A stretch of DNA of 64,000 nucleotides, taken from assembly GCA_041686375.1 (NCBI GenBank), contig JAWLEB010000009.1:12424-76423 (forward strand), read 5' to 3'. Source of the stretch: Bacteroidales bacterium. GTDB lineage: Bacteria; Bacteroidota; Bacteroidia; Bacteroidales; UBA12077. A program made the position numbers and the translations under genes. The notes below the pieces were generated by a model. It had not been told where the DNA came from. It searched no databases and saw only the letters and a program-made list of their open reading frames with translations. Position 1 is the first letter of the stretch; each line of letters opens with the position of its first letter. Below, piece by piece: positions 28,589 through 61,812 of this stretch.

Positions 28589-28609
28589 AGACATAGGAGG
28601 AGTAATAAT

Positions 28610-30403: not shown

Positions 30404-30412
30404 TTATAGAAG

Positions 30413-32188: not shown

Positions 32189-32218
32189 TTTGAATAAAAA
32201 CATAGGAGGATCAAATCC

Positions 32219-43103: not shown

Positions 43104-44962
43104 TTTTTCTTTTTCTTATCGGATTGATAAAATTCTATGATTGAATTGAGCATTTGTTCGGTTTCAGAAGCCCCTTCACCCAGCAGATAGCCTATTTTTT
43201 GAACCATCTCAAGATTTTTATCAATGGCTTCAGTCACCCTTTTGATAACCTGCTCTTTTCTGATTTCAGGGGAATACATATCTCTGAATACAGCACCAAC
43301 AATCTTTCCTTTTCGGATTGTAAAAATTGACAGATTTAATAATTTGTCCTCAAAATGTATATCTCTATTGACAATGTTTTGGTGATTTTTTAATACATGT
43401 GAAAAGAGGTTGTAAACGTTATGTGGCAGGAGCGTTTTCAAATCTGCGCCAACCAGCCCGGGGATAACTTCATTGATTGATTCGGCTTCTTCTCCGAGAT
43501 ATTCTATAAAAGTCTCATTGGACTGGATGATTTTCATTTCTTTGTCGATGATAACCACAGCAGAAGGAAGTTTTTGCAGCATTGCATTGATGGTTTCCGA
43601 AGCTTCCTTGGCAGTTTGTTTCTCTTTCCTGGCCTTTTGTTCTGATTCCTTAAGTTTTGTTTGCGTTTGAGAGAGCTTCTCATTTGTTGTTCGCAGTGCT
43701 TTAATGTATTCATGACGATTGCGCAGCGTATAACTCAGGCACATCTCAGTTTTTGCAAGTCCTTTGGAAACGGCAATTGCAAAATCCCGGCACGATGGAT
43801 ATCCGCATGCTCTGCATCCACTATTGACATCTGAGTTTTCTTTGCCTATGGCCTTTAGAACTTCCTGTATTTTTTCTTCTGAAGGAGTCTCAATGCGTTG
43901 ATCGTTTTCATGGAAATCCCGGGTAAAATCCATTTCCATGTATCTTTCTATTTCTTCTTTCCATTGATCATAATTAAAATTTTTCAGTCGCTTATTGACA
44001 TAATCGATTACCCTTGAACGACGCAGGAATTTTTTTCCGCCCGGAGATGTACCCGGACCCATTATGCAGCCCTCGCAGTAGAATAGATTAAAGTGTCGCT
44101 TAATCTGCACTATGTTTTGATCAAATTGCCTGGCTGCATTTAACATGCTTTTTTTCCCTTCGGCTGTAGTAACCGTTCCTTGAAGTAAACTTTCACTAAT
44201 GTCTGCTGCTTGCAGAATTCCATTGCTTATTGGGAACAGAGACCCTTTATAGCCAATGGGAGAGTCAAAGTCAGAATACTCCAGTCTGCTCTCCTGAATA
44301 TTGAATTCCCTGAACAGCTCTCTGAGTTCAACAAAGGTCAGTACGGAGTCAATTTTCCGGTTACCATCATATAAGTTTGCTTCGTCCTTTGAATCCAAAC
44401 ACGGACCAATATATACCACATGGATATTTTCGCCATATAGTTTTCTTACCACCATTGCAGTGGCTACCATGGGAGACACCAGTGGAGCAAGATTATTAAC
44501 CAGATCAGGATGGAATTTTTCTATGAAGGCAACAACAGCAGGACAATTAGAAGTGATATAATATTTGCCCCTGAAAGACTCAAAGAGTTCTTTATACTTT
44601 AAGGCTACCAGATCGGCTCCGAAAGATACTTCATTTACCTTGTCAAATCCCAGTTGCTTGATCATCTGGACGAATTTCCGGTAGTCTGTAATATCATCAA
44701 ACTCACCGGAGATACTTGGAGCTACTATGGCTACTTTTTGCTTGTCCGAGCTCAGGAGTTTTTTTGTTTCTTCTTTAGAATTTTTATAAACAATGGCATT
44801 TTCCGGGCATGCACGTATGCAGCTTCCGCATGCAATGCATCGTTCCGGGATTATTCTTGCATAATCTTTGTTAACCTTAACTTCTATGGCATTAACGGGG
44901 CATTCTCTGACACAGGAATAGCTAAGGTTGCATCTTTCTTTAATGATTTGGACTAGTGACAT
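43100..44962 (-). CDS. hydS: sensory-type [FeFe]-hydrogenase-like protein with a C-terminal PAS domain
   Basis: Two ferredoxin CX2CX2CX3CP motifs. The H-domain motifs are altered (TSNCPAV, IGPCLDSKDE, FYCEGCIMGPG). It also has an extra CRACGYPSC...C motif, a coiled linker and a PAS-like C-terminus. Confidence 0.75.
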   Translation of the reverse strand: MSLVQIIKERCNLSYSCVRECPVNAIEVKVNKDYARIIPERCIACGSCIRACPENAIVYKNSKEETKKLLSSDKQKVAIVAPSISGEFDDITDYRKFVQMIKQLGFDKVNEVSFGADLVALKYKELFESFRGKYYITSNCPAVVAFIEKFHPDLVNNLAPLVSPMVATAMVVRKLYGENIHVVYIGPCLDSKDEANLYDGNRKIDSVLTFVELRELFREFNIQESRLEYSDFDSPIGYKGSLFPISNGILQAADISESLLQGTVTTAEGKKSMLNAARQFDQNIVQIKRHFNLFYCEGCIMGPGTSPGGKKFLRRSRVIDYVNKRLKNFNYDQWKEEIERYMEMDFTRDFHENDQRIETPSEEKIQEVLKAIGKENSDVNSGCRACGYPSCRDFAIAVSKGLAKTEMCLSYTLRNRHEYIKALRTTNEKLSQTQTKLKESEQKARKEKQTAKEASETINAMLQKLPSAVVIIDKEMKIIQSNETFIEYLGEEAESINEVIPGLVGADLKTLLPHNVYNLFSHVLKNHQNIVNRDIHFEDKLLNLSIFTIRKGKIVGAVFRDMYSPEIRKEQVIKRVTEAIDKNLEMVQKIGYLLGEGASETEQMLNSIIEFYQSDKKKKK

Positions 44963-44988: not shown

Positions 44989-45258
44989 TTAGAGGTATTT
45001 ATGGAAAATTTCGTCCAGGATATTTATAAGCCTGTCGGAATTTACTTCTGTGTATATTTTGTTTTCAAATTTAATAACGGGGCCTTCATTGCATTTATTG
45101 ACGCAGTGCGTACCGCAAAAGTGCACTTTATCTTCCAACTGATGCTCTTTTATGTAATTTTTTATAACCTGGACAGCTTCCTTGTTGCCTCTGGAAAAGC
45201 AAGCGCTCCCTAAACAAATTATAAGTTCCTTTTTATGGATTTTGTTTCTCTCTGACAT
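44989..45258 (-). CDS. thioredoxin-like [2Fe-2S] ferredoxin
   Basis: 89 aa. ICLGSACFSRG...FCGTHCVNKCNEGP gives the CX3C...CX3C pattern of Trx-like Fd. It is the first gene of the hydS operon. Confidence 0.7.
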   Translation of the reverse strand: MSERNKIHKKELIICLGSACFSRGNKEAVQVIKNYIKEHQLEDKVHFCGTHCVNKCNEGPVIKFENKIYTEVNSDRLINILDEIFHKYL

Positions 45259-45287
45259 AGGTTGAAAATCTAAATGAATAAAATTAG

Positions 45288-45402
45288 GAAACTGTTTTGA
45301 TTTTGTCCTGCTTTAACAAATTAGTTTTATTTATAGCCCCCTGTGGTAAAGCCTAATTATCTGTTCGATTTCTAAAAATTTGGTAAAGCAAAATTTCTAA
45401 AA
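45288..45402. repeat. 115-nt bipartite element, copy 1 (conserved 21-nt and 28-nt ends, unrelated 66-nt centre)
   Basis: GAAACTGTTTTGATTTTGTCC (45288-45308) and AAAATTTGGTAAAGCAAAATTTCTAAAA (45375-45402) recur identically at 62186-62206 and 62273-62300 with the same spacing. Confidence 0.7.
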
Positions 45403-45443
45403 TAATAGTTTTTATAAAACTAAACAATAATTTATTATTTTTA

Positions 45444-45496
45444 TTGTTATAAAATTAACAATGTTTGCAAAATAACAATATATTTTTGTAATTTTG
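45444..45496 (+). promoter_or_regulatory. Rex-like operator abutting a Bacteroidota-type promoter of hydrogenase locus 2
   Basis: TTGTTA-TAAAAT-TAACAA (45444-45461) has perfect half-sites. TTTG is at 45464-45467 and TAATTTTG is at 45489-45496, 21 nt apart. The hydC ATG is at 45514. Confidence 0.55.
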
Positions 45497-45513
45497 TACG
45501 ATTAATATTATTT

Positions 45514-45975
45514 ATGAAAACAATTGCGAAAATAATAGAAAATTATCCATTTGCCCGGAGGGAAAACTTAATTCCTATACTTCAGGATATACAGGATGAA
45601 TACGGATACCTGACGGAAGATGCTATTAAAGAACTTGGAAAATTCCTTGATGTTCCGACAAGTAAAATATACAGCCTGGCAACATTTTACAGTAAGTTCA
45701 GATTTCATCCGGCAGGGACATATCATTTGAAATTATGCCGCGGCATCTCATGCCATTTAAAGGGTTCTACAAATATTTTGAACGCTATAGAGCAGAAGTT
45801 GGGCATTCAAGATGGTGAATCAACACCTGATGGGCTCTTTAGTCTTGAAGTTGTTGCATGCATGGGGGCATGTGCATTTGGACCTGTTTTGAAAATTAAT
45901 GAGTACTATTATACTGAAATGGATGAAGATCGCCTCGATGAAATTATTGAATATTATAAAGAATACGAAGAGTAA
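45514..45975 (+). CDS. hydC: NuoE-like [2Fe-2S] hydrogenase subunit (locus 2)
   Basis: 153 aa. LCRGISCH...ACMGACAFGP. Confidence 0.85.
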   Translation: MKTIAKIIENYPFARRENLIPILQDIQDEYGYLTEDAIKELGKFLDVPTSKIYSLATFYSKFRFHPAGTYHLKLCRGISCHLKGSTNILNAIEQKLGIQDGESTPDGLFSLEVVACMGACAFGPVLKINEYYYTEMDEDRLDEIIEYYKEYEE

Positions 45976-45981
45976 AAATTT

Positions 45982-47928
45982 ATGGAAACAGTAGGTCCTT
46001 CAACATATAAAGATGTATTGATTAATGAAATCTTAGGTCAACCACAGGAAAAGATTAATCAATATCAAAATATTCTTGAAAAAATTTTACGGAACAAAAT
46101 TGATAGAACCTGTATTTCATTAACTTATACATCTTCCAGTATCATTGCCGGAGCAAAGGAGTCTTTTAAGACTATTGATACCTATCTTGAAGAAAGGGAC
46201 ATGGATGTGGATCTTTTTAAAGTTGGTTCAACCGGTTTATGTGCATTAGAACCATTTATGGAGGTTCAGTTACCGGGTAAAGCCAAAATTCTCTTTTCCA
46301 GGGTTACCGCTGATAAAGTTAATCATATTCTGGATGCTGTTTTTAATAGCTATTTGCCAGAAGAAAATGTGTTTGGGCAATATGAAAATAAATTGCATGA
46401 ACCTTGGGAAAATGTGCCGTACGTCCATGAGCATCCGTTTTTTGCAGGACAAAAACGATATATTCTTAAAAACTGCGGAATAATAAATCCTGAGTCGATT
46501 AATGAATATATTGCCGGGGGTGGTTATCAAAATTTTATGAAGACTATCCGAAATTATACGCCAGAAGAAATATGTGATTTGATAACCAATGCTGAACTAA
46601 GAGGCAGAGGAGGAGAAGGATATCCAACCGGGAAGAAATGGAAAAATACTTTGAATACATCCGGAGAACAGCGTTATCTTATTTGTAATGCCGGTGAAAG
46701 CGATCCCGGTGCATTCATGGAACGTACAATAATGGAAAGTGATCCGCATAATGTTATAGAATCGGTTGCTATTGCTTCATATGCTGTTGGTGCTCAAAAG
46801 GCAATTGTGTATCTGGAGTCGGAATATGATTTGGCCTATAAGAGATTGAGCAAAGCGATAGAACTTGCTAAATCATGTGGAATACTGGGACATGATATTT
46901 TCAATAGCGGATTTAGTTTAAATATAAGTATTTTCAGGGGAGCTGGCGCTTATGTTTGTGGTGAGGAAACGGCCTTAATTGCCAGTATGGAGGGGAAGCG
47001 GGGGATGCCAAGAACCAAACCGCCTTATCCTTCTCAAAAGGGTTTTACAGGCCAACCGACTGCATTAAATAATCTGGAAACATTATTAAATGTTCTTGTT
47101 GTTCTGAAGAATGGACCGGATAGGTACAAAGAGACAGGTACAGAAAACAGCAGGGGAACTAAAATCTTTTCATTATCAGGAAATATTGAGCGCACGGGTA
47201 TGATTGAAATACCTATGGGAAAGCCGATACGTGACATTATCTATAAAATTGGTGGTGGTTTACCGGATTATAGTGAGTTGAAAGGGGTCCTTGCAGGAGG
47301 TCCGGCAGGAGGAATTATAAAATACGAACATCTTGATACCCAGATTGATTATAAGAGTATAAGAGAGCTTGGATGTTCTCTGGGTTCAGGGGGATTGGTG
47401 GTGCTGGATCAAAACAATTGCATTATTGATACAGTAAAATATTATATGAGCTACCTGGAACAGGAGAGCTGTGGTAAATGTATTCCCTGCCGGGAAGGAA
47501 CAGCACGGATGCATGAGATTCTGGAAAACATTTCAAAAAAGCCACAGGATGAGAATGGTCATACTACCCTTCAGCGTTTTAAAGGCGTCATGCATCTCGA
47601 AAAGCTTGCGGAGGTTATCAGGGATACATCATTATGCGGTCTCGGGCAAAGAGCTGCAAATCCGGTTCTATCCACATTGCGCTGGTTCAGGGATGAATAT
47701 GAAGAGCATATATTTGACAGAAATTGTCAAGCTGGCATTTGTCGGGATTTAAGAACATATTACATCGATGTGGATAAATGTACCGGCTGTGCTATTTGTG
47801 CCAAGAAATGCCCGACAGGGGCAATATTTGGAACATTGAAAAAGGCTCATTTCATTGTACAGGAAAAGTGTATTGGCTGTGGTGAATGTTATGAGGTATG
47901 CAAGTTTAATGCTATTATCACTCAATAA
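45982..47928 (+). CDS. hydB: NuoF-like hydrogenase flavoprotein subunit, divergent (locus 2)
   Basis: GRGGEGYPTG, CNAGESDPGAF (NADE changed to NAGE), ESCGKCIPCR...LCGLGQ, and two C-terminal ferredoxin motifs. The N-terminal Trx-like domain keeps only 2 of 4 Cys. Confidence 0.8.
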   Translation: METVGPSTYKDVLINEILGQPQEKINQYQNILEKILRNKIDRTCISLTYTSSSIIAGAKESFKTIDTYLEERDMDVDLFKVGSTGLCALEPFMEVQLPGKAKILFSRVTADKVNHILDAVFNSYLPEENVFGQYENKLHEPWENVPYVHEHPFFAGQKRYILKNCGIINPESINEYIAGGGYQNFMKTIRNYTPEEICDLITNAELRGRGGEGYPTGKKWKNTLNTSGEQRYLICNAGESDPGAFMERTIMESDPHNVIESVAIASYAVGAQKAIVYLESEYDLAYKRLSKAIELAKSCGILGHDIFNSGFSLNISIFRGAGAYVCGEETALIASMEGKRGMPRTKPPYPSQKGFTGQPTALNNLETLLNVLVVLKNGPDRYKETGTENSRGTKIFSLSGNIERTGMIEIPMGKPIRDIIYKIGGGLPDYSELKGVLAGGPAGGIIKYEHLDTQIDYKSIRELGCSLGSGGLVVLDQNNCIIDTVKYYMSYLEQESCGKCIPCREGTARMHEILENISKKPQDENGHTTLQRFKGVMHLEKLAEVIRDTSLCGLGQRAANPVLSTLRWFRDEYEEHIFDRNCQAGICRDLRTYYIDVDKCTGCAICAKKCPTGAIFGTLKKAHFIVQEKCIGCGECYEVCKFNAIITQ

Positions 47929-47939
47929 AAAAGCTGAGA

Positions 47940-49664
47940 ATGTACATTGATATAGAAGTAAATAATAAAACAATTCATGCAAAAAAGGGAGATACCATCT
48001 TAGAGGCATTACGGGAAAACGGCATCTACGTTCCTACCCTTTGTAACTTAAGCGAATTTTCACCGACTGGGGCATGCCGGTTATGTGTTGTTGAGGTTGA
48101 GGGGAAAGAGCGACTTGTTACAGCCTGCAGTTATCCCATTGAGGAGTGGTTAAGAATTAGAACGCATTCTCCACGGGTGATAGAAGCAAGAAGAATGATT
48201 GTGGAACTATTGCTGTCTAATCATCCTGAGGATTGTCTCTATTGTGAAAGAAACAATAAGTGCGAACTGCAGAAACTTGCACAGGAATTGAATTTGCGCG
48301 AAAGACGAATTACCGGAAAGAAAAATAGGGGCAAACTTGACCTTTCCAGTCCCGGTTTGGTGTATGAGCCTGCCAAGTGTGTCCTTTGTGGCCGATGTGT
48401 CAGAGTATGTGAGGGAAAAGAACGCGTATCAACACTTGAATTTACCGGAAAGGGGAATTTTACTTCCATTTCAACTACCATGAAGAAGGATTTGAATTTT
48501 TCCAATTGCTTACATTGTGGACAATGCATACTTGTTTGTCCCACAGGAGCTTTGCAGGAAAAATCCTATTTTGAACCTATACAGGAGGCACTTTCTAAAG
48601 AAAATGTTACTGTGGTTGCCCAATATAGTCCGTCAGTTGCTGTATCTCTTGCTGATGGATTTAATATGCGCTCGGGAAAAGATATGTCTGGGTTAATAAA
48701 TAGTGCATTACGAAAAATAGGATTTGATAAAATTTTTGACAATAGTTTTGGAACTGATGTTTATCTCATTGAAGAGGCTGCAGAATTAGCTAACAGAATG
48801 GATAAAGAAGAAAACTTACCTATGCTGAGCAGCTCTTGTCCTGCCTGGATAAAATACATGGAACAAGCGCATCCTGATCTTTTATCGTTCATTTCCACGG
48901 TTAAATCACCTGAGCAGTTAACCGGATCACTCATAAAGCAATATTGCCTTGATAGTGAAGATAGAGCGAATAATGATATTTTTACAGTTGCTATAGTCCC
49001 GTGTCCGGCTAAAAAATTTGAGGCGCAGCGGGAGGAAATGACAAATAAAGGAATTTCCGATATTGATGCCGTGATGACTACCCACGAATTAGCCAGATTA
49101 ATACAGCTTTATGGAATTGATATTGAGAATATTGATCCGGAAGAATCGGATAAGCCTTTTAATATCAGTAGTTCTTCTGCTAAGTTACCGGCAGCAATAG
49201 GGGGAACTTCCGAAGCGCTTTTAAGAACCATCAATTATAATCTGACGAACAAAGATCTATCTTCGGCTAAAATTTCAAAGCTACGGGGGAGTAAAGAGAT
49301 GAAACAAACAAAATTAATTATAGAAGATAGAACAATAAATGTGATTTCTGTCAGTCCTATTGCCAATATTGAGAAACTAGTGGACGAGATACGAAAAAAT
49401 GACTCAGAGTATCAATATATTGAAGTTATGGCTTGTCCGGGTGGCTGTGTGAATGGAGGCGGACAGCCTGTTCTAAAAAACATTAAGAATCTACGCGACA
49501 GAATTAAAGCCGTGCAGAATATTGATGAGAAAAGTTCTCAGCGTTTTGCACACAGAAATACAGGTGCCTGGCGTTTTATTGAAGAAAAATTTGAAAAACC
49601 TTATAGCGAAACAGCATTAAAAATATTGCATACCCACTATTCAAAAAGGGATGTGTTATTGTGA
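47940..49664 (+). CDS. hydA: [FeFe]-hydrogenase-like large subunit, M3 architecture, with non-canonical H-cluster environment (locus 2)
   Basis: Full N-terminal FeS motifs. L1 is LSSSCPAW (Ser299 codon TCT at 48834-48836), L2 is IVPCPAKKFE (Val353 codon GTC at 48996-48998), and L3 is canonical (EVMACPGGCVNGGGQP). Confidence 0.8.
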   Translation: MYIDIEVNNKTIHAKKGDTILEALRENGIYVPTLCNLSEFSPTGACRLCVVEVEGKERLVTACSYPIEEWLRIRTHSPRVIEARRMIVELLLSNHPEDCLYCERNNKCELQKLAQELNLRERRITGKKNRGKLDLSSPGLVYEPAKCVLCGRCVRVCEGKERVSTLEFTGKGNFTSISTTMKKDLNFSNCLHCGQCILVCPTGALQEKSYFEPIQEALSKENVTVVAQYSPSVAVSLADGFNMRSGKDMSGLINSALRKIGFDKIFDNSFGTDVYLIEEAAELANRMDKEENLPMLSSSCPAWIKYMEQAHPDLLSFISTVKSPEQLTGSLIKQYCLDSEDRANNDIFTVAIVPCPAKKFEAQREEMTNKGISDIDAVMTTHELARLIQLYGIDIENIDPEESDKPFNISSSSAKLPAAIGGTSEALLRTINYNLTNKDLSSAKISKLRGSKEMKQTKLIIEDRTINVISVSPIANIEKLVDEIRKNDSEYQYIEVMACPGGCVNGGGQPVLKNIKNLRDRIKAVQNIDEKSSQRFAHRNTGAWRFIEEKFEKPYSETALKILHTHYSKRDVLL

Positions 49665-51664
49665 TGCAAAAAGATGTGCCAAATACAGAAAGAGAATTGG
49701 TTCATACGATAAAGAATCGTTGTAGAGTGTGTTATACATGTGTGAGGGAATGTCCGGCCAAAGCTATTAAAATCATTAATGGACAGGCTGAGATTCTTAA
49801 TGAAAGATGTATAGCATGTGGAAACTGTATAAAGGTATGCAGCCAGGGTGCAAAAATGTTTATCGATACAACCTCTCACCTGGAAGGAATTTTGAGTAAC
49901 GGGAATAAAAATATTGCCATTCTTGCCCCAAGTTTTCCGGCTGAATTTTCCGATATTCCGAACTACAGAGATTTAGTGTCTATGATTCGTGCCCTGGGTT
50001 TTGATGTTGTCTCTGAAGTAGCTTTTGGAGCTGATTTGGTTGCAATGGAGTACAATAAATTGATACGCAATAACAACAACAAACGGTATATTTCTTCTGA
50101 TTGTCCGGCGATTGTCCAGTACATCGAAAAATATCATCCAGAAATAGTGCCTAACCTTGCTCCTGTAGCTTCTCCTATGATAGCTATGAACCGGGTTATG
50201 AGGGCAAAATATGGAACAAATACCAATGTGGTTTTTATTGGTCCATGTATTGCGAAAAAAGCTGAATGTGACGAGGTTGACGAAATGGTAACCTTTGCTG
50301 AGTTAAGAGAAATTTTTGAACAAAAAGATATCGTTCCCGGGCAACAGGAACCTTCAGATTTTGATCCGCCTAAAAGTGGAAGAGGCGCTATATTTCCTGT
50401 GAGCAGAGGGTTGTTGCAAACAACGGGAATAAAGGATGATGTCTTTGACGGGAATATTATTGTTGCTGAAGGACGCAATGATTTTCAGGAGGCGATTAAG
50501 GAGTTTGAAACCGGACATATTAAATCAAGACACCTTGAGTTGTTATGCTGCGAAGGATGTATTGTTGGGCCCGGAACCACAAAAGGTGGAAGACCCTATG
50601 GACGAAGAATTCTTGTGCATAATTATGTTCAGGAAAAGATAGATAACTTTGATAAAGATGAATGGAAAAAGTATGTTGCAGAATGTAAAGATTTAGATCT
50701 TAGTGTTGGTTTTACGGAAAATGATAAGCGTATCTCATATCCAACAGAGCAAGAGATTGAGAAAGTTCTGAGATCAATGGGTAAAAAAGAAGCTAAAGAT
50801 CATCTCAATTGTGGCGCTTGTGGTTATGATACCTGTGAGGAGCATGCTATTGCTATTGTAAAAGGTTTGGCGGAAAATGAAATGTGTTTGCCTTATACCA
50901 TTGAAAAATTACATAATTCTGTAAATGAACTTGCTGTTTCTAATGAGAAGTTAATGTCTATGCAGCAGGCATTACGTCAGTCTGAAAAAATGGCAAGTAT
51001 GGGGCAATTATCGGCAGGCATAGCTCATGAATTAAATAATCCACTGGGAGTTGTGATTATGTATGCCAACATCCTGCTTGAAGAAGTACCGGAAGATTCA
51101 GAGTTATATAATGACTTGAAGCTTATAGTTGAACAGACCCATCGATGCAAAAAGATTGTGGGAGGACTGTTGAATTTTGCACGTAAAAATCAGGTTTCAA
51201 GAACTGAAGTAGATACTGTGCAACTCATTGAAAATAGCTGTGATGCGGTTATTGTTCCGGATAATGTAAAAATGGTTGTGAAAACAGATAATTTGAATGG
51301 TCGGAAAGCATATCTCGATCAGGAGCAGATGACGCAAATTTTAACCAATTTGATAAAGAATGCTATTGATGCTATGCCTGACGGTGGTAAGCTTACCATT
51401 GAACTGGCAGATGATGAGCATTACACCATTTTCCGGGTACATGACACGGGCAAAGGAATCAAACCCGCGGATAAGGAGAAAATATTCGAACCTTTTTATA
51501 CCACAAAAGGTATAGGGGAGGGAACAGGTCTGGGGTTAGCTACAGCTTATGGGATTGTGAAAATGCATAAAGGAAAAATTACCGTGGATTCAAATGATAA
51601 TAAGGAGAATGGCCCTACAGGTACTACTTTTACAGTAAAGTTACCCAAGTTTCAGGAGAATTAA
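49664..51664 (+). CDS. sensory-type [FeFe]-hydrogenase-like domain fused to a histidine kinase
   Basis: Two ferredoxin motifs and altered H-domain motifs (SSDCPAI, IGPCIAKKAE, LLCCEGCIVGPG). Then CGACGYDTC...C, the HisKA H-box GIAHELNNPLG, and HATPase_c boxes (NLIKNAIDA, DTGKGI, GTGLGL). The ATG overlaps the hydA stop (TGATG). Confidence 0.8.
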   Translation: MQKDVPNTERELVHTIKNRCRVCYTCVRECPAKAIKIINGQAEILNERCIACGNCIKVCSQGAKMFIDTTSHLEGILSNGNKNIAILAPSFPAEFSDIPNYRDLVSMIRALGFDVVSEVAFGADLVAMEYNKLIRNNNNKRYISSDCPAIVQYIEKYHPEIVPNLAPVASPMIAMNRVMRAKYGTNTNVVFIGPCIAKKAECDEVDEMVTFAELREIFEQKDIVPGQQEPSDFDPPKSGRGAIFPVSRGLLQTTGIKDDVFDGNIIVAEGRNDFQEAIKEFETGHIKSRHLELLCCEGCIVGPGTTKGGRPYGRRILVHNYVQEKIDNFDKDEWKKYVAECKDLDLSVGFTENDKRISYPTEQEIEKVLRSMGKKEAKDHLNCGACGYDTCEEHAIAIVKGLAENEMCLPYTIEKLHNSVNELAVSNEKLMSMQQALRQSEKMASMGQLSAGIAHELNNPLGVVIMYANILLEEVPEDSELYNDLKLIVEQTHRCKKIVGGLLNFARKNQVSRTEVDTVQLIENSCDAVIVPDNVKMVVKTDNLNGRKAYLDQEQMTQILTNLIKNAIDAMPDGGKLTIELADDEHYTIFRVHDTGKGIKPADKEKIFEPFYTTKGIGEGTGLGLATAYGIVKMHKGKITVDSNDNKENGPTGTTFTVKLPKFQEN

Positions 51665-51798
51665 GCATAAAATGTATAATAATAAACTAGATCAAAATCA
51701 AAATAAGAGGTGATAATTTTATTATACAGAGTTTTTCAGGAAAATATTACCTTAATCGATAAGAATCATGGAAAACCGATCCATAAAAAACCAAACAT

Positions 51799-52191
51799 AT
51801 GACGGAAGAAAAGACGATATTAGTTGTTGATGACGATATTGATTACCTTTTTCAGATGGAGTTAATGCTCAAGAATATGGGGTATAATGTTCTTAAAGCA
51901 GAAAGCCAGAAAGAGGGTGAGCAAATTCTGGAATCGAACCGGCCGGATTTGGCTATTTTTGACTTGATGATGGAGACTGAAGACAGTGGTTTTGTTTTGA
52001 GTTATAAGGCAAAAAAGAAATATCCGGATATGCCTGTAATCATAGCTACTGCTGTGGCTTCTGAGAGAGGTATTTCTTTTGGACTCAACAGTGTAGAAGA
52101 AAAAACATGGATCAAGGCCGATGCATATCTTGAAAAGGGAGTACGAAAAGAACAATTACAAAACGTCATTGAAAAGTTATTGGATAAATGA
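51799..52191 (+). CDS. stand-alone response-regulator receiver protein
   Basis: 130 aa. VVDDD, phospho-acceptor context IFDLMM, and a conserved Lys (LEKG). No output domain. Confidence 0.8.
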   Translation: MTEEKTILVVDDDIDYLFQMELMLKNMGYNVLKAESQKEGEQILESNRPDLAIFDLMMETEDSGFVLSYKAKKKYPDMPVIIATAVASERGISFGLNSVEEKTWIKADAYLEKGVRKEQLQNVIEKLLDK

Positions 52192-53321
52192 AGAAATTAA
52201 AAGTTCTTGTGGTAGATGATGAACCTGGTATTTGTGCGGGTGTAAAGCGTATTTTGAATAAATTCACTGTAAGTTATCCATTTATGGATGAGGATCACGG
52301 GTTTGAAGTTTATGAATCATATACGGGGGAGGAGGCTATTGAATACATTATAAAAGACCCACCGGATATTCTGCTTTTGGATAACAAATTGCCCGGTATT
52401 CAGGGAACAGAAGTGCTTGAATATGTGAATAATAATAATCGTAATATTGTTGTAATGATTATAACTTCTTATGCATCTCTTGAACTGGCTGTAAAGGCAA
52501 CGAATGAGGGAGCGTATGATTTTATACCGAAGCCTTTTACGCCCCAGGAATTGAAATCTTCTATGGAAAATGTTACCAAACATCTTTTCCTTCGTTCAAT
52601 GACGCAAAAATTGAATAAAGAAGGCAAGGAAGTGAGGTTTCAGTTTCTCTCGGTTCTCTCTCATGAGTTAAAATCTCCCCTGAATGCCCTGGAGGGTTAT
52701 CTGAATATTATGAAGGAAAGGCAGGCAGGAGAAGAAATTTCTAATTACGATCAGGTTATTGATCGCTCCTTGCAAAGGATGAAAGGAATGCGTAACTTAA
52801 TTATGGATTTACTGGATCTTACCAAAATAGAATTTGAAAAGAAGGAGGATAAGTTTGAATCGGTTAATCTTAACCAGCTTGCTCAAAGCGCTGTAGAGTC
52901 TATGAAACCCTACGCTATACAGAAAGATGTTACAGTGGAAATCCATGGGGGAGATAACATATACCTGGATGCAGACCCCGGAGATATTGAAATTGTAATG
53001 AATAATCTGGTATCCAATGCCGTGAAGTATAATAAGGAACGTGGAAAAGTTGATGTTCACATCAAACAAAAAGATAACGATATAATTGAGATTCGGGTGG
53101 ATGATACAGGTATTGGAATGAATAAGGAAGAAATTCAAAAATTATTCAATGAATTTTACAGGGCAAAAAATGAGAAAACCCGCCAAATTACGGGAAGTGG
53201 ATTAGGATTGCCTATAGTTAAAAAGGTAGTTGATTTATACCATGGAGAAATAAAAGTTAACTCTAAACCGGATATGGGAAGTACATTTATTGTTTATTTG
53301 CCAGCAAAGTCTAATATGTAA
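52188..53321 (+). CDS. hybrid receiver / histidine kinase (REC-HisKA-HATPase_c)
   Basis: N-terminal REC (VVDDEP..LLLDNKLPG..PKPF), H-box LSHELKSPLN, and boxes NLVSNAVKYN, DDTGIGM, GSGLGLPIV. Its ATG overlaps the upstream TGA by 4 nt (ATGA). Confidence 0.8.
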   Translation: MKKLKVLVVDDEPGICAGVKRILNKFTVSYPFMDEDHGFEVYESYTGEEAIEYIIKDPPDILLLDNKLPGIQGTEVLEYVNNNNRNIVVMIITSYASLELAVKATNEGAYDFIPKPFTPQELKSSMENVTKHLFLRSMTQKLNKEGKEVRFQFLSVLSHELKSPLNALEGYLNIMKERQAGEEISNYDQVIDRSLQRMKGMRNLIMDLLDLTKIEFEKKEDKFESVNLNQLAQSAVESMKPYAIQKDVTVEIHGGDNIYLDADPGDIEIVMNNLVSNAVKYNKERGKVDVHIKQKDNDIIEIRVDDTGIGMNKEEIQKLFNEFYRAKNEKTRQITGSGLGLPIVKKVVDLYHGEIKVNSKPDMGSTFIVYLPAKSNM

Positions 53322-53371
53322 ATAATTTAATATATTGCCCTGTCAAATCTGTATATTTAAAATTGAATATT

Positions 53372-54022
53372 ATGAAAACACTTCCGGAAAAGACAATAGA
53401 AAGACTGAGTGTCTACAGAAGAAGCTTATTGAATTGCTATTCCGATGGTAAAGAATATATCTATTCGCATGAGCTTGCAAATTTGCATAATATAACTTCA
53501 GTGCAGGTTAGGAGAGATTTAATGTTGATAGGCTATTCTTCAACACTAAAAAAAGGATATGATGTGAAAGCCTTGATTGATCTTATAGGTCAGATTCTGG
53601 ATTCACCAAATGGGTTGAATGTTGCTGTGGTAGGTGTAGGAAACTTAGGACGTGCGATTACTACTTATTTTAGAGGCAAAAGATCAAAACTGCAAATTGT
53701 AGCTTCGTTTGACACGGATCCGGAGAAAATCAATAGTGTGATTTCAGGTGTAAAATGTTACTCCATGAAAGAGCTGGAAACAATCATCAGGGAAAAAAAT
53801 ATTTCGGTTGCAATTTTAACTGTGCCTCCTGAATATGCCAATAGTGTTGCAGAACTGCTTGCGCAAAGTGGGATAAAAGGTTTATTAAATTATACTTCTG
53901 TCCCTGTTAAGGTTTCGACTGACATTGTTTTGGATGATTATGATATGACAATGTCTCTGGAGAAAGTTGCATATTTTGTAAAACAAAAGGCTGATGAAGA
54001 GAGTTTGAATGAGTTGAAATAA
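53372..54022 (+). CDS. rex: redox-sensing transcriptional repressor Rex
   Basis: N-terminal winged helix (IERLSVYRR.L) and a Rossmann motif VAVVGVGNLGRA. About 215 aa. The ORF is open from TTG 53363. Confidence 0.85.
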   Translation: MKTLPEKTIERLSVYRRSLLNCYSDGKEYIYSHELANLHNITSVQVRRDLMLIGYSSTLKKGYDVKALIDLIGQILDSPNGLNVAVVGVGNLGRAITTYFRGKRSKLQIVASFDTDPEKINSVISGVKCYSMKELETIIREKNISVAILTVPPEYANSVAELLAQSGIKGLLNYTSVPVKVSTDIVLDDYDMTMSLEKVAYFVKQKADEESLNELK

Positions 54023-54160
54023 TATCGCGTTTAGCGAATATTGAAAGCAAAATGATCCCTGATTCATATGGATTGTATAAAAGACGATCAATAAAGCCAT
54101 ACCTGTCGGCAGACCATACAGAGGGTTTCATTTAACCATTAATTGATAAAAGACAAACGA

Positions 54161-55093
54161 ATGCAAATATATCGAACTTTTGATATAAAGGGTAAGATAA
54201 AAAATCCGGTTGTTACAACAGGCTCGTTTGATGGAGTCCATATCGGACACAAGGCTATCCTCCAGCGCCTTAGAAATATTGCAAATGAAATAGACGGGGA
54301 GACCGTCTTAATTACGTTCTATCCTCATCCGAGAAAAGTACTCTATCCTGAAACGCACGGGAAAAATCTGAAGCTTATAAACACACAGAAGGAAAAAATA
54401 TATTTACTGGAACAAACTGGTCTTGATCATCTCATTATCATCAATTTTACCAGAGAATTTGCAAAAACTACATCTTATCAGTTTGTAGAAGACATACTTG
54501 TTGATAAGCTTAACGCAAAGCGTATAATTGTTGGCTTTAACCATCATTTTGGCCATAACAGAGAGGGAGATTATGATTATCTGTATGAACTGGCTAAACA
54601 TCATGATTTTGAAGTAGAAGAGATTCCGGAGCAGGATGTGGAAAATGAAACGGTGAGTTCAACAACTATCCGGAAATCACTGGCGGAAGGTAAAATTCAA
54701 AGGGCCAATGCTTACCTTGATCATTTCTATATCATTATCGGTAAGTTAAAGGACGGACATCCAAAATACAGGGAAATTGGTTTCCCAACTTATGAGGTTG
54801 AAATTGAAGAAGAGGAAAAGCTTATTCCCAGCGAGGGAGTCTATGCTGTCAGTATGAGGCATGATAAAGGACGACATAAAGGGATGCTTTATATAAAGCA
54901 ATATCCGGAAAGAAAAAAACTGACTGCAGAAGTTCATCTTTTCGGATTAGACCACGAATTTGATTTTAGAGGACAGATAGTGAATATAAGGTTTCATAAA
55001 AAAATACGAGATGAGCTAAACTTTAGCAATACGGAAGATCTTCATAAGCAGTTGAATATGGATATGCAGAATATTAAAAAATTAATTTTTTAA
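54161..55093 (+). CDS. ribF: bifunctional riboflavin kinase / FAD synthetase
   Basis: GSFDGVHIGH, and the riboflavin kinase C-terminal motifs. The ORF is open from TTG 54143. Confidence 0.85.
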   Translation: MQIYRTFDIKGKIKNPVVTTGSFDGVHIGHKAILQRLRNIANEIDGETVLITFYPHPRKVLYPETHGKNLKLINTQKEKIYLLEQTGLDHLIIINFTREFAKTTSYQFVEDILVDKLNAKRIIVGFNHHFGHNREGDYDYLYELAKHHDFEVEEIPEQDVENETVSSTTIRKSLAEGKIQRANAYLDHFYIIIGKLKDGHPKYREIGFPTYEVEIEEEEKLIPSEGVYAVSMRHDKGRHKGMLYIKQYPERKKLTAEVHLFGLDHEFDFRGQIVNIRFHKKIRDELNFSNTEDLHKQLNMDMQNIKKLIF

Positions 55094-55317
55094 TTCATAT
55101 TGCAATACATAGCCAAACATAATATATTATTAAGAAGCTGTTGTTTTATTTGTTGTTTTTGGCGTAATTTTTAATTTTCCTATTTTTATCCCATATAAAT
55201 TATTGAATCGAAGAAAACTTATCATGTTAAGTTCTCTGCCTTTGGCAATAAATTGCTTTTGGCGGGAAAACATTTGATAAATAGTGCATTACAATAATCA
55301 AATGAAATAAAACTGCT

Positions 55318-55893
55318 TTGAAAAAATATCCTGACCTTAAAATCATACAAGGCATCCGCCAACAGGACTCCAGAGTACTTCAATATTTGTATGATGAATA
55401 TTTCACCATGATACGGTCGATGGTTATTGAAAATTATGGGAATGAGGATGATGCAGAGGATGTTTTTCAGGAATCAATAATTTTGATATACAGAAAAATT
55501 ACAAATGAATCATTTGAGTTGACTTCTACGTTTAAAACCTATATGTTTGCTGTTTGCTGGAATATGTGGAAGAAGGAGTTGAGGTATAGATCTCGGCATA
55601 AGAATATAAAGGAAGGGTACCAATATCTTGCACAGAACCCGGAAAATCTGAATGTAGAATATGAATTGCACAGAAGATATAAACTTTACCAGGAGCATTT
55701 TAAAAAATTGGGTAAGGATTGCCAGAAAATATTAAAAATGGTATTGAAAGGAGACTCTTATCAAAAAATTGCAAAAAAAATGAGACTTAAAAGTGCTCAA
55801 TACGTAAAAAAGAGAAAATATATCTGTAAGGAGGAATTAATTGAAGCAATAAGAAACGATAAAAGATATAATGATTTTTATGAATCAGACTGA
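55318..55893 (+). CDS. ECF-type sigma-70 family factor
   Basis: 191 aa. Region 2 (DAEDVFQESIILIYRKI) and a region 4 HTH (DSYQKIAKKMRLKSAQYVKKRKY). TTG start. It overlaps the next ORF by 23 nt. Confidence 0.7.
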   Translation: MKKYPDLKIIQGIRQQDSRVLQYLYDEYFTMIRSMVIENYGNEDDAEDVFQESIILIYRKITNESFELTSTFKTYMFAVCWNMWKKELRYRSRHKNIKEGYQYLAQNPENLNVEYELHRRYKLYQEHFKKLGKDCQKILKMVLKGDSYQKIAKKMRLKSAQYVKKRKYICKEELIEAIRNDKRYNDFYESD

Positions 55894-56677: not shown

Positions 56678-56822
56678 TGAAACCCTCATCCACTACCGTG
56701 GACAAAAGTCTGTGTATGAAGCATAAGGGTTCCATGGGATGCAGAGTGAACTTACGTTGACTTTTGTAGCAATAAGTCTCATAGTATGAAACTAATAACC
56801 TGACTTTATTTAAATGAAAAAT
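56678..56822 (+). repeat. 145-nt repeat, copy 1 (candidate structured RNA)
   Basis: Gap-free match to 61660-61804, about 84 percent identity by hand count. It overlaps the last 5 codons and the stop codon (17 nt) of the CHAT gene on the opposite strand. Confidence 0.75.
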
Positions 56823-59619
56823 ACCTCTTTTTTCGGTTCATGTAATACCTTCTTCCTATCAAACCGGCCACAACTATTATCAATATACCCCCTATAAGGT
56901 AGTCCCGGTTTTTATTATAGATAGCTTCTTTATCACCGATAAGAATGTAACCAGACCAAAAATAGGGGTGTGCATGAAGCATGTCTGCATTATTTAAAAA
57001 TTTTATTTTTGCTTCTCTTAACGCTTCTTCCTTACTTTTTCCCTTGATAATTTCTTCATAGAAATATTCCATTAATTGAATACTTGCATTATCTTCCACA
57101 GGCCAGAGAGTCATGACAATAGAGGGGCATCCGGCATATTTGAATCCACGTGCCAGACTCATTACTCCTTCACCGCGACTTAACTTGCCTATACCCGTAT
57201 TGCATGAGCTTAAAATAGTCATACGACTGCTTAAATTCAGATTATAGATTTCGTAAGTATTCAGAAATCCATCCTCTTCCTGCTCATTAGTTTGGGTAAA
57301 TGCCATTTTAGAAAACATAGGATCATCATCACTGACAATTGTATGCATTGCCAGATGAAGCATATCATATTTGGATGAATGCTTTTTGAAATTCTTTTCG
57401 GTGGCATCCTCATCGATGAATTTATCTCCATTAATGATTTGGGTGATTTTTGAAACTTCTTTTTTAATCCCTTTTAGCGGGTACAGGCGCTCCCTGTATT
57501 TTTGGCGTGTGGCTATTTTTACTTCATCCGGATTTTCAAGATTTTCATAGGAAGGAGCAAAACCTGCAAACCTTTTTTTAGACTTTTTTTTAACAACAGG
57601 TTCTGTGAACAGGACTTTTGCAGAGTAGTCATAACTGATATTATAATCATGGATTAAGTATCGCAGTGAACTGTAATCAGGCAGGTCTGATAATACAGGT
57701 TTGGTTACAAGAATTTCAAAGGGTATATAGGCAAGCTGGTCATCCGGAATGATTATCAGTTTTTTATTTTGTGGCAGGTTGAGTGGTTTGATGAGTTTTG
57801 AATAAATGTAATGGGCGGTTTGTGCAAAATCCTTCATATCTTCTTTTCCATGATTTGCAAAATTTCTTTTTGAGATTGAATTCTTTAAATTGTTGATTTC
57901 CTGAGGTAAGGAATCATTAATAGGTGTTAAATGCATACGAAGATCATTTTTTTCCAGCATAAAAGTATATAGTTTTTCCTCAAATATGGCATACTCTACA
58001 ATGATATCCTCATTGCTCATTTTCTCTTGTATAACTTCCGGTTTTATGGCTTTTAGATTGTATTTTAACTCATAAAAATCAGGATAATCCTTTTCAAATG
58101 TTTGCATTAATGTTTCGTATGATCTATTTAGTTGAAATAGTTGATCTTCCAATTGTTGTATTTTATCTGAATTGGGGGTTTCATCCTGGTTTGCTTCAAA
58201 AATGAGCTCTTCAACATTGTGAATGCGTTTTTTTATTAGGTTTTCTTTTTGTTTTAAACTATCGGGTATGTTTCCAATTGTTAAAGCTTGGTTAGATTGT
58301 ATAGATTCATACAATACAGTAGCTTTACTTCCTTCTGCATATGCAAATGCTTTGTCCAGATATTTTTTGTTCTGCGTATTTTGATATAACTGAATAGCTA
58401 TCTCCATGGCCTCCATATAAGTATCCCTTTCTTCGGCAGTGAGAAGAAGTTTACTATCGTCATTTATATAACCTTTCCTTATTTCCCGTGTAGTTCTTAT
58501 AGCAAGATCATAAGTTTTTAGAGCTTCTTCATAGTACCTTGGATTTTTTTCTCCCCATTCTTCTAATTTTCTCGCTTTTCTTTTAGAAAGCTCCAACAAT
58601 TCATTCTTTGAAAATACATTCTCTGCTCTTGGATTAGCAAACAGGGAGGTATCATTGAACTCTTCCGATATTGCTATTAAACCCTTTTGATAACTCTCTA
58701 AAGCTTTTCTTAATTCTCCCTGTTGATAATACAGGTCTCCCAGGTTGGAAAAAACTTTCGAAGTCTCCGGATGATTATCCCCTAAAGATGAGTGGTATAT
58801 TTTTAAAGAATTGTTAAATAACTCCTTTGCTTCAGTAAAAGATTTTTGTTTCAATTTTAATACTCCATAATTCATGTAAATTTTGGCCAGATTGTAATTA
58901 TTTTCCCCGTAGCTTTTTTTTGCCTCAGGTATTATTTCTTTATAGTATTGTTCAGCAATCTTATTGCTATCTGATTTATGGTATGCATTAGCGATGTTGA
59001 CCATAGTATTTAAAATTCCCTCTGAGTCAGACTTATCTTTTATTTTAAGACTGATTTTATAATTATCAACGGCTTTCTGATACGAGCCCAGATTATTGTA
59101 TAATGCTCCGAGATTGTTATAGATCCATGATAACTGCTCAAGATTTTCTAAGGAGTCTTTTTTTAATAAACTAATAGCTTTATGATAATATAATTCTGCT
59201 TTTTCTTTATCTTTTTGTAAAGAAAAAATATTAGCCATGTTCAAATAATTCGACCCTAATTTCCTGTTGCTTATAGTATCCTGCTTCTCATATATTCTTT
59301 CTGCTTTCAGATAATATTCCATGGATTTATCATAATAGCCTTGTTTTTTGTAAATTACCCCAATATTAACATAGGTGTCCGCTATTGTCTTGTGATTATC
59401 ATCCTGGAGTTTTTCTTTTTTGTATTTTAAGATATCCATGAATATATCCCGGGACTGTTGAAATTTTTCACGTGCTGCCATCTCTAAAGCCCTTTTTTTC
59501 AATGAGTCCAGTGAATTAAACTGGTTATCAGTTGAAGTTGTGGTTAAGTTACAATAGGATTTTATTGAAAATAGCAATATAGTGGTAATTAAGGTTATTT
59601 TTCGGAGTTTTTGAGACAT
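56806..59619 (-). CDS. TPR-repeat CHAT-domain (caspase-fold) protease, predicted extracytoplasmic with a C-terminal membrane anchor
   Basis: 937 aa. N-terminal signal-like segment, many TPRs, a CHAT dyad context (LHLAMHT and ILSSCNTG), and a C-terminal TM helix (LIGGILIIVVAGLIG). Confidence 0.8.
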   Translation of the reverse strand: MSQKLRKITLITTILLFSIKSYCNLTTTSTDNQFNSLDSLKKRALEMAAREKFQQSRDIFMDILKYKKEKLQDDNHKTIADTYVNIGVIYKKQGYYDKSMEYYLKAERIYEKQDTISNRKLGSNYLNMANIFSLQKDKEKAELYYHKAISLLKKDSLENLEQLSWIYNNLGALYNNLGSYQKAVDNYKISLKIKDKSDSEGILNTMVNIANAYHKSDSNKIAEQYYKEIIPEAKKSYGENNYNLAKIYMNYGVLKLKQKSFTEAKELFNNSLKIYHSSLGDNHPETSKVFSNLGDLYYQQGELRKALESYQKGLIAISEEFNDTSLFANPRAENVFSKNELLELSKRKARKLEEWGEKNPRYYEEALKTYDLAIRTTREIRKGYINDDSKLLLTAEERDTYMEAMEIAIQLYQNTQNKKYLDKAFAYAEGSKATVLYESIQSNQALTIGNIPDSLKQKENLIKKRIHNVEELIFEANQDETPNSDKIQQLEDQLFQLNRSYETLMQTFEKDYPDFYELKYNLKAIKPEVIQEKMSNEDIIVEYAIFEEKLYTFMLEKNDLRMHLTPINDSLPQEINNLKNSISKRNFANHGKEDMKDFAQTAHYIYSKLIKPLNLPQNKKLIIIPDDQLAYIPFEILVTKPVLSDLPDYSSLRYLIHDYNISYDYSAKVLFTEPVVKKKSKKRFAGFAPSYENLENPDEVKIATRQKYRERLYPLKGIKKEVSKITQIINGDKFIDEDATEKNFKKHSSKYDMLHLAMHTIVSDDDPMFSKMAFTQTNEQEEDGFLNTYEIYNLNLSSRMTILSSCNTGIGKLSRGEGVMSLARGFKYAGCPSIVMTLWPVEDNASIQLMEYFYEEIIKGKSKEEALREAKIKFLNNADMLHAHPYFWSGYILIGDKEAIYNKNRDYLIGGILIIVVAGLIGRRYYMNRKKRYFSFK

Positions 59620-61646: not shown

Positions 61647-61659
61647 AATGTTATTCAAA

Positions 61660-61804
61660 TGAAACCCTCATCCACTAACTTAGACAAATGCCTGTGCATA
61701 AACCATGAGGGTTCCATGGGATGCAGAATCAACTTACGTTGACTTTAGTAGCACTGGGTCTCAGAGTAAGAAACTAATAACCTAACTTGGTTCAAATGAA
61801 AAAT
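61660..61804 (+). repeat. 145-nt repeat, copy 2 (candidate structured RNA)
   Basis: See 56678-56822. It ends 8 nt upstream of the LytTR gene ATG. Confidence 0.75.
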
Positions 61805-61812
61805 TAAATAAT

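Follow-up and report, generated by a model that had tools for sequence, protein, structure and literature searches.

A sensory-type [FeFe]-hydrogenase fused to a histidine kinase and linked to a conserved receiver module in Bacteroidales

We describe a gene of a Bacteroidales bacterium that very probably encodes a fusion between a sensory-type [FeFe]-hydrogenase and a histidine kinase. The gene occupies positions 49664-51664 of the + strand in a 64,000-nucleotide (nt) stretch of contig JAWLEB010000009.1 (GenBank assembly GCA_041686375.1); this stretch is called the window, and all coordinates are window positions. Its 666-aa product, here the sensor-kinase, is encoded directly behind a set of HydABC-type hydrogenase genes, hydCBA2, and ahead of genes for a stand-alone receiver (REC) protein, a hybrid of a receiver and a second kinase (REC-kinase), and the regulator Rex. 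We lean towards a model in which an H2-responsive kinase, coupled to its sensor by a helix, feeds two receivers, with Rex as a separate gate.

A sensory-type H-domain joined to an intact kinase

The sensor-kinase consists, in order, of two [4Fe-4S] Fer4 motifs, an H-domain, an Fe-S domain with the motif Cx2Cx4Cx16C, a linker, and the HisKA (DHp) and HATPase_c (CA) domains of a transmitter. Pfam models matched Fe_hyd_lg_C at residues 83-303 (1.8e-45; 156 bits against a gathering cutoff of 22.1), PF04060 FeS at residues 381-410 (2.8e-9), HisKA (1.4e-13) and HATPase_c (1.4e-26), and the ferredoxin motif CxxCxxCxxxC occurs twice, at C20-C30 and C49-C59. The three H-domain motifs are SSDCPAI (P1), IGPCIAKKAE (P2) and ELLCCEGCIVGPG (P3), against TSCCPAW, MPCLAKKFE and MACPGGCIGGGGQP in the HydA of a separate hydrogenase operon in the window, locus 1 (30413-32188). 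An earlier note, made from the sequence of this DNA, had described the ferredoxin motifs, the three deviating signatures, four retained cluster-ligating cysteines, an aspartate in place of the proton-relay cysteine, an extra four-cysteine motif and an intact transmitter. All of these were confirmed, down to the exact wording of the quoted motifs, as did the Fe_hyd_lg_C match on which the note had staked its reading.

Alignment to the catalytic enzyme CpI places C147, C195, C296 and C299 of the sensor-kinase at the H-cluster ligands C300, C355, C499 and C503, and 43-44 of 44 distant kinase-fused relatives keep these four cysteines. A88-P89-S90, K198, E201 and F244 correspond to the CpI residues by which the [2Fe] subcluster is held (APS232, K358, E361 and F417). 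Three other active-site positions are replaced, Cys299 by D146, Met353 by G193 and Met497 by L294, and the group A proton path is lost (E279 to Tyr, E282 to Lys, S319 to Ala). The same proton-path signature is reported for the putative sensory enzymes TmHydS and TamHydS (PMC8163306; PMC10055695; PMC10407848). Scores against NCBIfam fell below the cutoffs for both group A (TIGR02512; 96.8 against 405.95 bits) and the monomeric B1 type (171 against 450 bits). The hallmarks of a catalytic group A enzyme, namely TSCCP, Cys299, the E279/S319/E282 path and the score, are absent, and those of sensory groups C and D are present: two [4Fe-4S] motifs and a Cx2Cx4Cx16C domain flanking the H-domain, replacement of Cys299, Met353 and Met497, and an adjacent group A hydrogenase.

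The residue at the position of Cys299 is Asp in 117/117 close homologues (62-100% identity, motif readable). Kinase-fused relatives at greater distance have Pro, Thr, Ala, Ser or His there, so the aspartate is a selected feature of the Bacteroidota clade and not of the class. One study gives Ala for both TmHydS and TamHydS (PMC10407848). The top-scoring CpI entry in our PDB search was 6glz, the engineered C299D variant. Of all relay substitutions, C299D alone keeps CpI and HydA1 substantially active, at 30-80% (PMC6226526).

The kinase half is strongly constrained as well. In relatives with as little as 34% identity, all 16 cluster cysteines, His455 and the N and G boxes show at least 90% conservation or are invariant, and in two alignments of relatives H455, N566, D594/G596/G598, F611 and G620-G624 were invariant or nearly so. 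The best PDB matches of the transmitter were ZraS, KinB and CckA. An AlphaFold2 model (mean predicted local distance difference test score, pLDDT, 71) is of high confidence in the H-domain and CA domain. Foldseek matched it with probability 1.00 to the HydABC subunit HydA, CpI and CbA5H over about 420-450 columns and, separately, to histidine kinases, namely the cytoplasmic domains of ZraS and CckA, and HK853; a solved structure of a sensory-type enzyme was not found in the PDB or Foldseek searches.

A linker that varies in heptad steps

The C-terminal cluster motif is exactly Cx2Cx4Cx16C (C383-C408), is present in 339/340 relatives and is the motif described for M2e and M2f enzymes (PMC8163306). 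Right after C408 begins a leucine-zipper run (L409, L416, L423, L430 and L437, then A444 and A451), and the other core stripe (I413, V420, N427 ... H455) includes the phospho-accepting His455. We counted the length of the linker, from the last cluster cysteine to this histidine, over 227 relatives without an inserted PAS domain. It was 47 residues in 202 sequences (153 unique linkers). The other in-register lengths were 33 (47 - 14; two unique linkers), 40 (47 - 7; nine), 54 (47 + 7; four) and 68 residues (47 + 21; one), and lengths of 38, 48 and 49 residues, which are off register, were each represented by one unique linker. Whole-heptad offsets from 47 therefore account for 16/19 of the unique linkers of other lengths. 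Counted by length class, 4/7 are in register against 1 in 7 expected, with a binomial estimate of about 0.01. Stepping by heptads is, at the sequence level, the pattern expected of a rigid coiled-coil signalling helix, and it provides the strongest evidence of this kind for how the sensor module would signal to the kinase.

An operon conserved across the clade

The genes from hydC2 to ribF form one operon-like run on the + strand:

45514-45975, + strand: hydC2, NuoE-like (Pfam and NCBIfam)
45982-47928, + strand: hydB2, NuoF-like (Pfam and NCBIfam)
47940-49664, + strand: hydA2, H-domain and small-subunit domain (Pfam, NCBIfam)
49664-51664, + strand: sensor-kinase, HydS-HK, 666 aa (Pfam, CpI alignment, motif conservation, AlphaFold2 and Foldseek)
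51799-52191, + strand: stand-alone REC, 130 aa (Pfam Response_reg, 1.6e-15)
52188-53321, + strand: REC-kinase, a REC-HisKA-HATPase_c hybrid, 377 aa (Pfam)
53363-54022, + strand: rex, NADH/NAD+-sensing repressor, TTG start (NCBIfam NF003995; Pfam Put_DNA-bind_N and CoA_binding)
54143-55093, + strand: ribF, FAD synthetase / riboflavin kinase

The stop codon of hydA2 (TGA, 49662-49664) overlaps the ATG of the sensor-kinase at 49664 in TGATG; translation could alternatively begin at an in-frame GTG at 49661. As the earlier note had it, the stop of the stand-alone REC gene and the start of the REC-kinase gene overlap in ATGA. Between the sensor-kinase and REC genes lies a gap of 134 nt (51665-51798), against 12-16 nt in orthologues, in which no terminator or recognisable element was found. 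A scan of 45000-55400 for sigma-70 promoters and terminators returned chance-level results with a tool that does not cover Bacteroidota promoters.

Among 5.8 billion proteins searched, at least 7,976 matched the sensor-kinase at E<=1e-10. Its architecture is shared by every one of the best 120 (62-100% identity), and those with names come from Bacteroidales or from Bacteroidota metagenome-assembled genomes; the kinase-fused architecture is very common in Bacteroidota and in other phyla. With the sensor part alone, an exhaustive search returned 1,007 clusters (50% identity) below 1e-30. The best 150 of these comprised 47 kinase-fused clusters, some with extra PAS domains or C-terminal receivers, 58 with the C-terminal region of a PAS-type paralogue described below, and otherwise fragments or other outputs.

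Gene order was compared at several depths, with related loci numbered L001 onwards. A contig scan with the sensor-kinase alone recovered one true relative, L001 (89%), its other matches being unrelated kinases. Two loci at 66-67% identity, L006 and L007, are laid out as in the window, in the order PP2C phosphatase, PAS-type sensor and [2Fe-2S] ferredoxin on one strand, then divergently hydC, hydB, hydA, sensor-kinase, REC, REC-kinase, rex and ribF. A wider census covered 72 metagenome loci at 43-63% identity, using our own calls of open reading frames (ORFs) and phmmer with the domains of the window, and its denominators vary. In 50/66 loci HydA was encoded no more than two genes ahead of the sensor-kinase, a stand-alone REC was adjacent in 50/70, and a REC-kinase followed within three genes in 54/66. 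Rex was found downstream in 22/49 loci and anywhere nearby in 27/72, and a PAS-type sensor upstream in 20/40.

The same comparison bears on the earlier proposal that the hydrogenase and the sensor-kinase are co-translated. The overlap on which it was built exists here, but orthologous hydA2/sensor-kinase junctions have gaps of 10-63 nt and no TGATG; the overlap is lineage-specific, only adjacency and co-orientation being conserved, and the inference was overstated. Genes of the size of hydG, hydF or hydE, or carrying their Pfam families, follow the module in many loci; hydG/F directly flank the sensor-kinase in some (L012, L010 and L014, for example), and in L010 the module sits between two hydrogenase operons.

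Two receivers and the end of the relay

The stand-alone REC carries its phospho-acceptor at Asp55, and D11, D12, D55 and K113 are conserved in 56/56 orthologues. The alpha4 face is the usual output surface of a receiver; in this family the alpha4 region is atypical, with W104 in 51/56 and D108 in 53/56 orthologues. The REC-kinase, whose best PDB matches are HK853-type kinases, combines an N-terminal receiver (Asp65) with a second intact kinase (His159), and 52/52 of its orthologues keep D10, D11, D65, K115, H159, N277 and the glycines of the G boxes. Since the residues of the phospho-chemistry are invariant, the relay parts are probably functional.

A phmmer search found no further receiver domain among the ORFs of the 64-kb window, so no response regulator with an output domain is detectable there, and by Pfam and NCBIfam Rex is the sole DNA-binding protein of the operon. 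These results agree with the earlier note, which had described a relay with no DNA-binding output. An NtrC-type regulator was adjacent to the module in 0 of 72 census loci; on gene content, the operon's lack of a DNA-binding output is conserved throughout this clade and is not a peculiarity of this genome. In two more distant relatives, L013 and L015 (36-37% identity), an NtrC-type REC-AAA+-HTH_8 regulator directly follows the sensor-kinase as in a classical two-component pair, which suggests that the family works as a two-component sensor. The best matches of the transmitter are ZraS/AtoS-type kinases, a weak hint towards an NtrC-like receiver. Compared with the NtrC-type receivers of the distant relatives, the receiver of the hybrid shows 27-29% identity and the stand-alone REC 29-32%.

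Some loci keep one of the two receivers. Only the stand-alone REC is present in L011, L021, L051, L052 and L093, and only the REC-kinase in L049, L063, L068, L073, L088, L090 and L094. This distribution fits, and does not prove, branched transfer to both receivers.

We also considered two sets of genes as further relay parts. NarL-type REC-GerE regulators lie upstream of hydC in L031, L033, L045 and L048, and were rejected as a general end point because they are absent from the clade of the window and because the neighbouring kinase in L045, the one of these loci where it was examined, is of the Cache-PAS-HisKA_3 type. Immediately before hydC, these four loci additionally encode one or two proteins that consist of a receiver alone. 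Within the window, a HisKA-only gene and a LytTR-only gene (60921-62172) were dismissed as well, since gene order past ribF differs in L006 and L007 and the LytTR protein lacks a receiver; no supporting evidence and no link of the genes in this region to the hydrogenase relay was found.

Candidate Rex operators before both hydrogenase operons

Rex scored 203.6 bits against a cutoff of 126 for NF003995, and its gene is syntenic in L006 and L007. We counted matches with at most one mismatch to the 18-bp Rex consensus TTGTKAANNNNTTMACAA over the 64 kb; this consensus derives from Ravcheev et al. 2012, as cited in PMC5317091. Two matches were found where 0.20 were expected, and 0/100 shuffled sequences reached two. 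The sites and the second operon concerned are as follows:

45444-45477, strand not assigned: candidate Rex operator with tandem boxes (18-bp consensus match)
28111-28128, strand not assigned: second Rex-box-like site (18-bp consensus match)
28190-32710, + strand: locus-1 hydrogenase operon (first ORF, then hydB1, hydA1 and hydC1)

The first match, TTGTTATAAAATTAACAA, occupies 45444-45461, about 53 nt ahead of the start of hydC2, with a second, half-overlapping box, TGTTTGCAAAATAACA, abutting it. The whole element is placed just upstream of a TAnnTTTG-like -7 element, and the corresponding promoters in L001, L006 and L007 keep both boxes. The other match, CTGTTAAAATATTAACAA at 28111-28128, lies 62 nt upstream of 28190, the start of the first gene of the locus-1 operon. 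With two near-consensus boxes upstream of both hydrogenase operons, Rex is a likely transcriptional gate of both. A canonical 20-bp Rex pattern with a 6-nt spacer was tried too and gave chance-level matches only.

Two side observations concern these operons. The ORF heading the locus-1 operon (28190-28588, + strand, 132 aa) has no Pfam match. In L014, a relative at 43% identity, a 389-aa protein (114-1283) fuses Rex, with its DNA-binding N-terminus and CoA_binding domain, to a NuoE-like HydC [2Fe-2S] domain, and heads an operon of hydBA, REC, sensor-kinase and REC-kinase.

HydA2 and a second, PAS-type sensor

The earlier note had compared the sensor-kinase with the locus-1 HydA. The motifs given were right, but HydA2, the hydrogenase subunit to which the sensor-kinase is coupled, itself carries Ser at the relay position Cys299 (SSSCPAW) and Val at Met353 (VPCPAKKFE). 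In CpI, the C299S substitution leaves less than 1% activity. Ser occurs at this position also in L001 (89%), Cys in L006, L010 and L014, and Asp in L011 (TSDCPSW). HydA2 stays below the NCBIfam cutoffs for A6 (645 against 765 bits) and group A (395.7 against 405.95), and the locus-1 HydA passes A6 with 892 bits.

The note had captured the anatomy of the locus and missed, besides the Rex-box-like sites, a divergent operon with a paralogous sensor and a PP2C phosphatase:

44989-45258, - strand: small [2Fe-2S] ferredoxin of the thioredoxin-like type, 89 aa, heading the divergent sensor operon (Pfam PF01257, 7.7e-9)
43100-44962, - strand: PAS-type sensory H-domain paralogue, 620 aa, divergent from hydC2 (Pfam)
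41919-43103, - strand: PP2C/SpoIIE-type phosphatase, 394 aa (Pfam SpoIIE, 3.2e-12; synteny)

The PP2C gene shares 4 nt with the end of the gene for the PAS-type sensor, and all three genes are syntenic in L006 and L007. The paralogue comprises Fer4 motifs, an H-domain, Cx2Cx4Cx16C and a weak PAS domain, and is 43% identical to the sensor-kinase over the N-terminal 470 aa, the post-cluster helix included. Its motifs, ITSNCPAV, IGPCLDSKDE and FYCEGCIMGPG, have Asn at the Cys299 position and Ser at Lys358, and its first Fer4 motif has Ser for the second cysteine. It is of the phosphatase-linked type (HydDB C3; HydS type of R. albus and T. maritima). Two different putative H2 sensors thus border a single hydrogenase operon, and the arrangement recurs in other loci; one paper describes organisms with several sensory isoenzymes as rare (PMC10407848).

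Proposed mechanism and alternatives

In the model that we favour, the sensor-kinase would be a soluble cytoplasmic histidine kinase with a group C (sensory-type) [FeFe]-hydrogenase as its input module. H2 would bind the H-cluster and, with slow turnover, bring about a redox or conformational change of the sensor module. This change may pass along the continuous leucine-zipper helix from C408 to the DHp His455, whose register can be read from the sequence, and so set the balance between autokinase and phosphatase activity. The phosphoryl group would then go to the stand-alone REC, to the N-terminal receiver of the second kinase, or to both. From the second kinase it may pass to a partner whose gene lies elsewhere, or return to the stand-alone REC, which would then act by protein-protein contact. 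Rex, responding to NADH/NAD+, probably gates both hydrogenase operons separately through the sites seen about 55-60 nt upstream, and the PAS-type sensor and PP2C phosphatase that are present may act as a second, parallel H2 input. Such a circuit would match NADH/ferredoxin-dependent hydrogenase expression or activity to H2 partial pressure and NADH load, with H2 switching the kinase either on or off.

Several points weigh against this model. Asp299 keeps CpI active, so the sensor-kinase could turn over faster than a 'pure' sensor, and no hydE/F/G gene was identified among the window ORFs scanned. The AlphaFold2 model is of low confidence in the linker (residues 404-454, pLDDT <50) and the Fer4 region, and the pattern of linker lengths would indicate mechanical coupling only, not what moves the helix. 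In the related TamHydS, H2 does not reduce the C-terminal cluster and disrupting it barely alters activity (PMC13104023), which makes a simple redox switch at that cluster doubtful. The receiver identities to NtrC-type proteins are similar, so either receiver may be the direct substrate of the kinase, and the candidate Rex operators are matches to a consensus. Our literature search found no experimental or biochemical work on the kinase-fused type and no purified member.

An unlikely alternative, though the best placed of those weighed here, is that the relay ends on proteins of the operon, with the phosphorylated stand-alone REC binding Rex or HydABC and modulating repression or enzyme activity. 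It draws on the finding of a DNA-binding response regulator beside the module in 0/72 loci, on the family-specific conserved alpha4 region of the stand-alone REC and on Rex, which is co-operonic in the clade and fused to HydC in L014. However, most loci keep REC and REC-kinase without Rex (27/72 have it), and a second kinase intact in 52/52 orthologues needs a substrate of its own. We know of no precedent for a receiver domain controlling Rex.

We think it rather improbable that the protein senses redox state and not H2, either through an H-domain holding only [4Fe-4S] clusters (Nar1/NARF-like) or through clusters poised by ferredoxin or HydABC. All three H-cluster motifs do deviate from catalytic enzymes, the invariant N-terminal ferredoxin-type clusters could take electrons from a partner, the linkage to hydA is tight (with a stop/start overlap in this lineage), and a study of Hydrogenedentota C1 proteins hardly found canonical P1-P3 motifs in them (PMC11406978). 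But the four H-cluster cysteines are conserved together with the equivalents of S232, K358, E361 and F417. An aspartate in 117/117 sequences at the position contacting the amine of the azadithiolate (adt) bridge is hard to explain without a [2Fe] subcluster. Moreover, a hydG/F gene flanks the sensor-kinase in some loci (L012, L010, L014), and characterised sensory relatives bind an H-cluster (PMC8163306).

That the sensor-kinase is instead a low-activity catalytic subunit, mainly a fourth subunit of HydABC with a secondary kinase domain, is very improbable: Asp at 299 supports 30-80% of CpI activity (PMC6226526) and the gene overlaps hydA2, but nothing else of the group A proton path is kept, the scores fall short of the NCBIfam cutoffs for groups A and B1, strong constraint acts on the catalytic residues of the kinase and on the heptad-quantised linker, and the overlap is not conserved.

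A more speculative conclusion, and to us a doubtful one, is that the H2 signal of this clade bypasses a dedicated transcription factor. The sensor-kinase, REC and second kinase would then form a self-contained post-translational circuit acting directly on HydABC and/or Rex, combined with the PP2C-based H2 sensor at the same promoter region, and the natural Asp299 would leave the sensor catalytically 'live' and thereby able to reset. If true, this would amount to dual-sensor, partly non-transcriptional control of an electron-bifurcating hydrogenase.

Neighbouring genes

The two genes dismissed above lie in a region of their own. The first (60921-61646, + strand) encodes a 241-aa protein with a good HisKA domain, including the H-box histidine, and a degenerate CA domain without G1 and G2 boxes; judged by these features it could be a pseudokinase or a phosphotransferase. 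The second (61813-62172, + strand) encodes a 119-aa LytTR DNA-binding domain protein. The surrounding genes encode a TPR protein, a sigma/anti-sigma pair of the extracytoplasmic function (ECF) type and, at 56806-59619 on the - strand, a CHAT-TPR protein.

Significance

Whether group C and D enzymes really sense H2 and how the signal leaves them are still debated in 2026, and a recent study challenges the leading idea, a redox change of the C-terminal cluster, for TamHydS (PMC13104023). The biochemistry that we found, on TmHydS and TamHydS, concerns proteins without an enzymatic output, and a kinase fusion would offer a direct, quantitative read-out. The heptad-quantised linker is a clear mutational handle on the coupling mechanism, and the Asp299 clade amounts to a natural experiment on the single substitution known to leave the active site functional. 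In fermentative Bacteroidales of anoxic habitats, the circuit probably helps to set H2 release, a matter that bears on syntrophy, methane production and gut gas balance.

Comparison with known systems

HydDB lists an [FeFe] group C1, 'histidine kinase-linked (putative)' (Sondergaard, Pedersen & Greening 2016, PMC5037454). By its architecture, its context and the reports in PMC7768429 and PMC11406978, the sensor-kinase appears to correspond to this group, HisKA and HATPase_c being part of the same polypeptide. Members resemble it in pairing a sensory-type H-domain with histidine-kinase signalling, often beside a group A3 HydABC/Hnd hydrogenase, and their function is putative. A C1 gene of Petrimonas mucosa lies near hnd genes (PMC7768429). 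C1 proteins of Hydrogenedentota carry HATPase_c, and 21/53 adjoin A3 genes; that study hardly found canonical P1-P3 motifs in them, left H2 sensing open, and treated C3 proteins encoded with A3 genes as the T subunit of a BfuABC complex (PMC11406978). Kinase fusions are absent from a 2022 review (Morra 2022) and are not mentioned in the available portions of biochemical papers of 2023-2026 (PMC10055695, PMC13104023, PMC10407848). As far as the available descriptions of C1 go, they do not mention the REC/REC-kinase module, Asp299 or the heptad-quantised linker. The earlier note had implied a hydrogenase-derived sensor driving a kinase, which our results support; as HydDB C1 shows, the architecture is not unprecedented.

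TmHydS (Thermotoga maritima; group C, M2f), RaHydS and HfsB are PAS-type sensors with PP2C phosphatase or Ser/Thr kinase partners, the type to which the paralogue at 43100-44962 belongs. The sensor-kinase shares with them two N-terminal [4Fe-4S] motifs, Cx2Cx4Cx16C, the loss of Cys299, Met353 and Met497, and bifurcating hydrogenases as neighbours. In contrast, its HisKA/HATPase_c is fused directly, with no PAS domain between, and it has Asp and not Ala at 299 and Leu where TmHydS has Ser at 497, with Gly at 353 in both. TamHydS (Thermoanaerobacter mathranii; group D, M2e) is alike in its three-part cluster layout, putative sensory role and Leu at Met497, and differs in having no fused output, Ser at 353 and a group D-specific E252/E289 proton path (PMC10407848). 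TmHydS and TamHydS both bind an H-cluster and react with H2 (PMC8163306, PMC10055695).

Further afield, the HoxBC-HoxJ-HoxA system of Ralstonia eutropha ([NiFe] group 2b) likewise uses a crippled hydrogenase to report H2 to a histidine kinase controlling hydrogenase expression, but its metal site and fold are unrelated, its sensor and kinase are separate, and its output, HoxA, is of the NtrC type (PMC5707799). Leptospira LvrB (PDB 8vc9), which is among the sequence and structure matches of the sensor-kinase transmitter, resembles the REC-kinase in its REC-DHp-CA order without a DNA-binding domain, the likeness shown being one of domain order.

In summary, the histidine-kinase-linked architecture itself is already known as HydDB C1 and would not surprise a hydrogenase specialist. 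What is new here is the clade-invariant Asp299, the heptad-quantised linker, the conserved REC/REC-kinase module, the candidate Rex operators, the dual-sensor layout and the contrast with NtrC-paired relatives.

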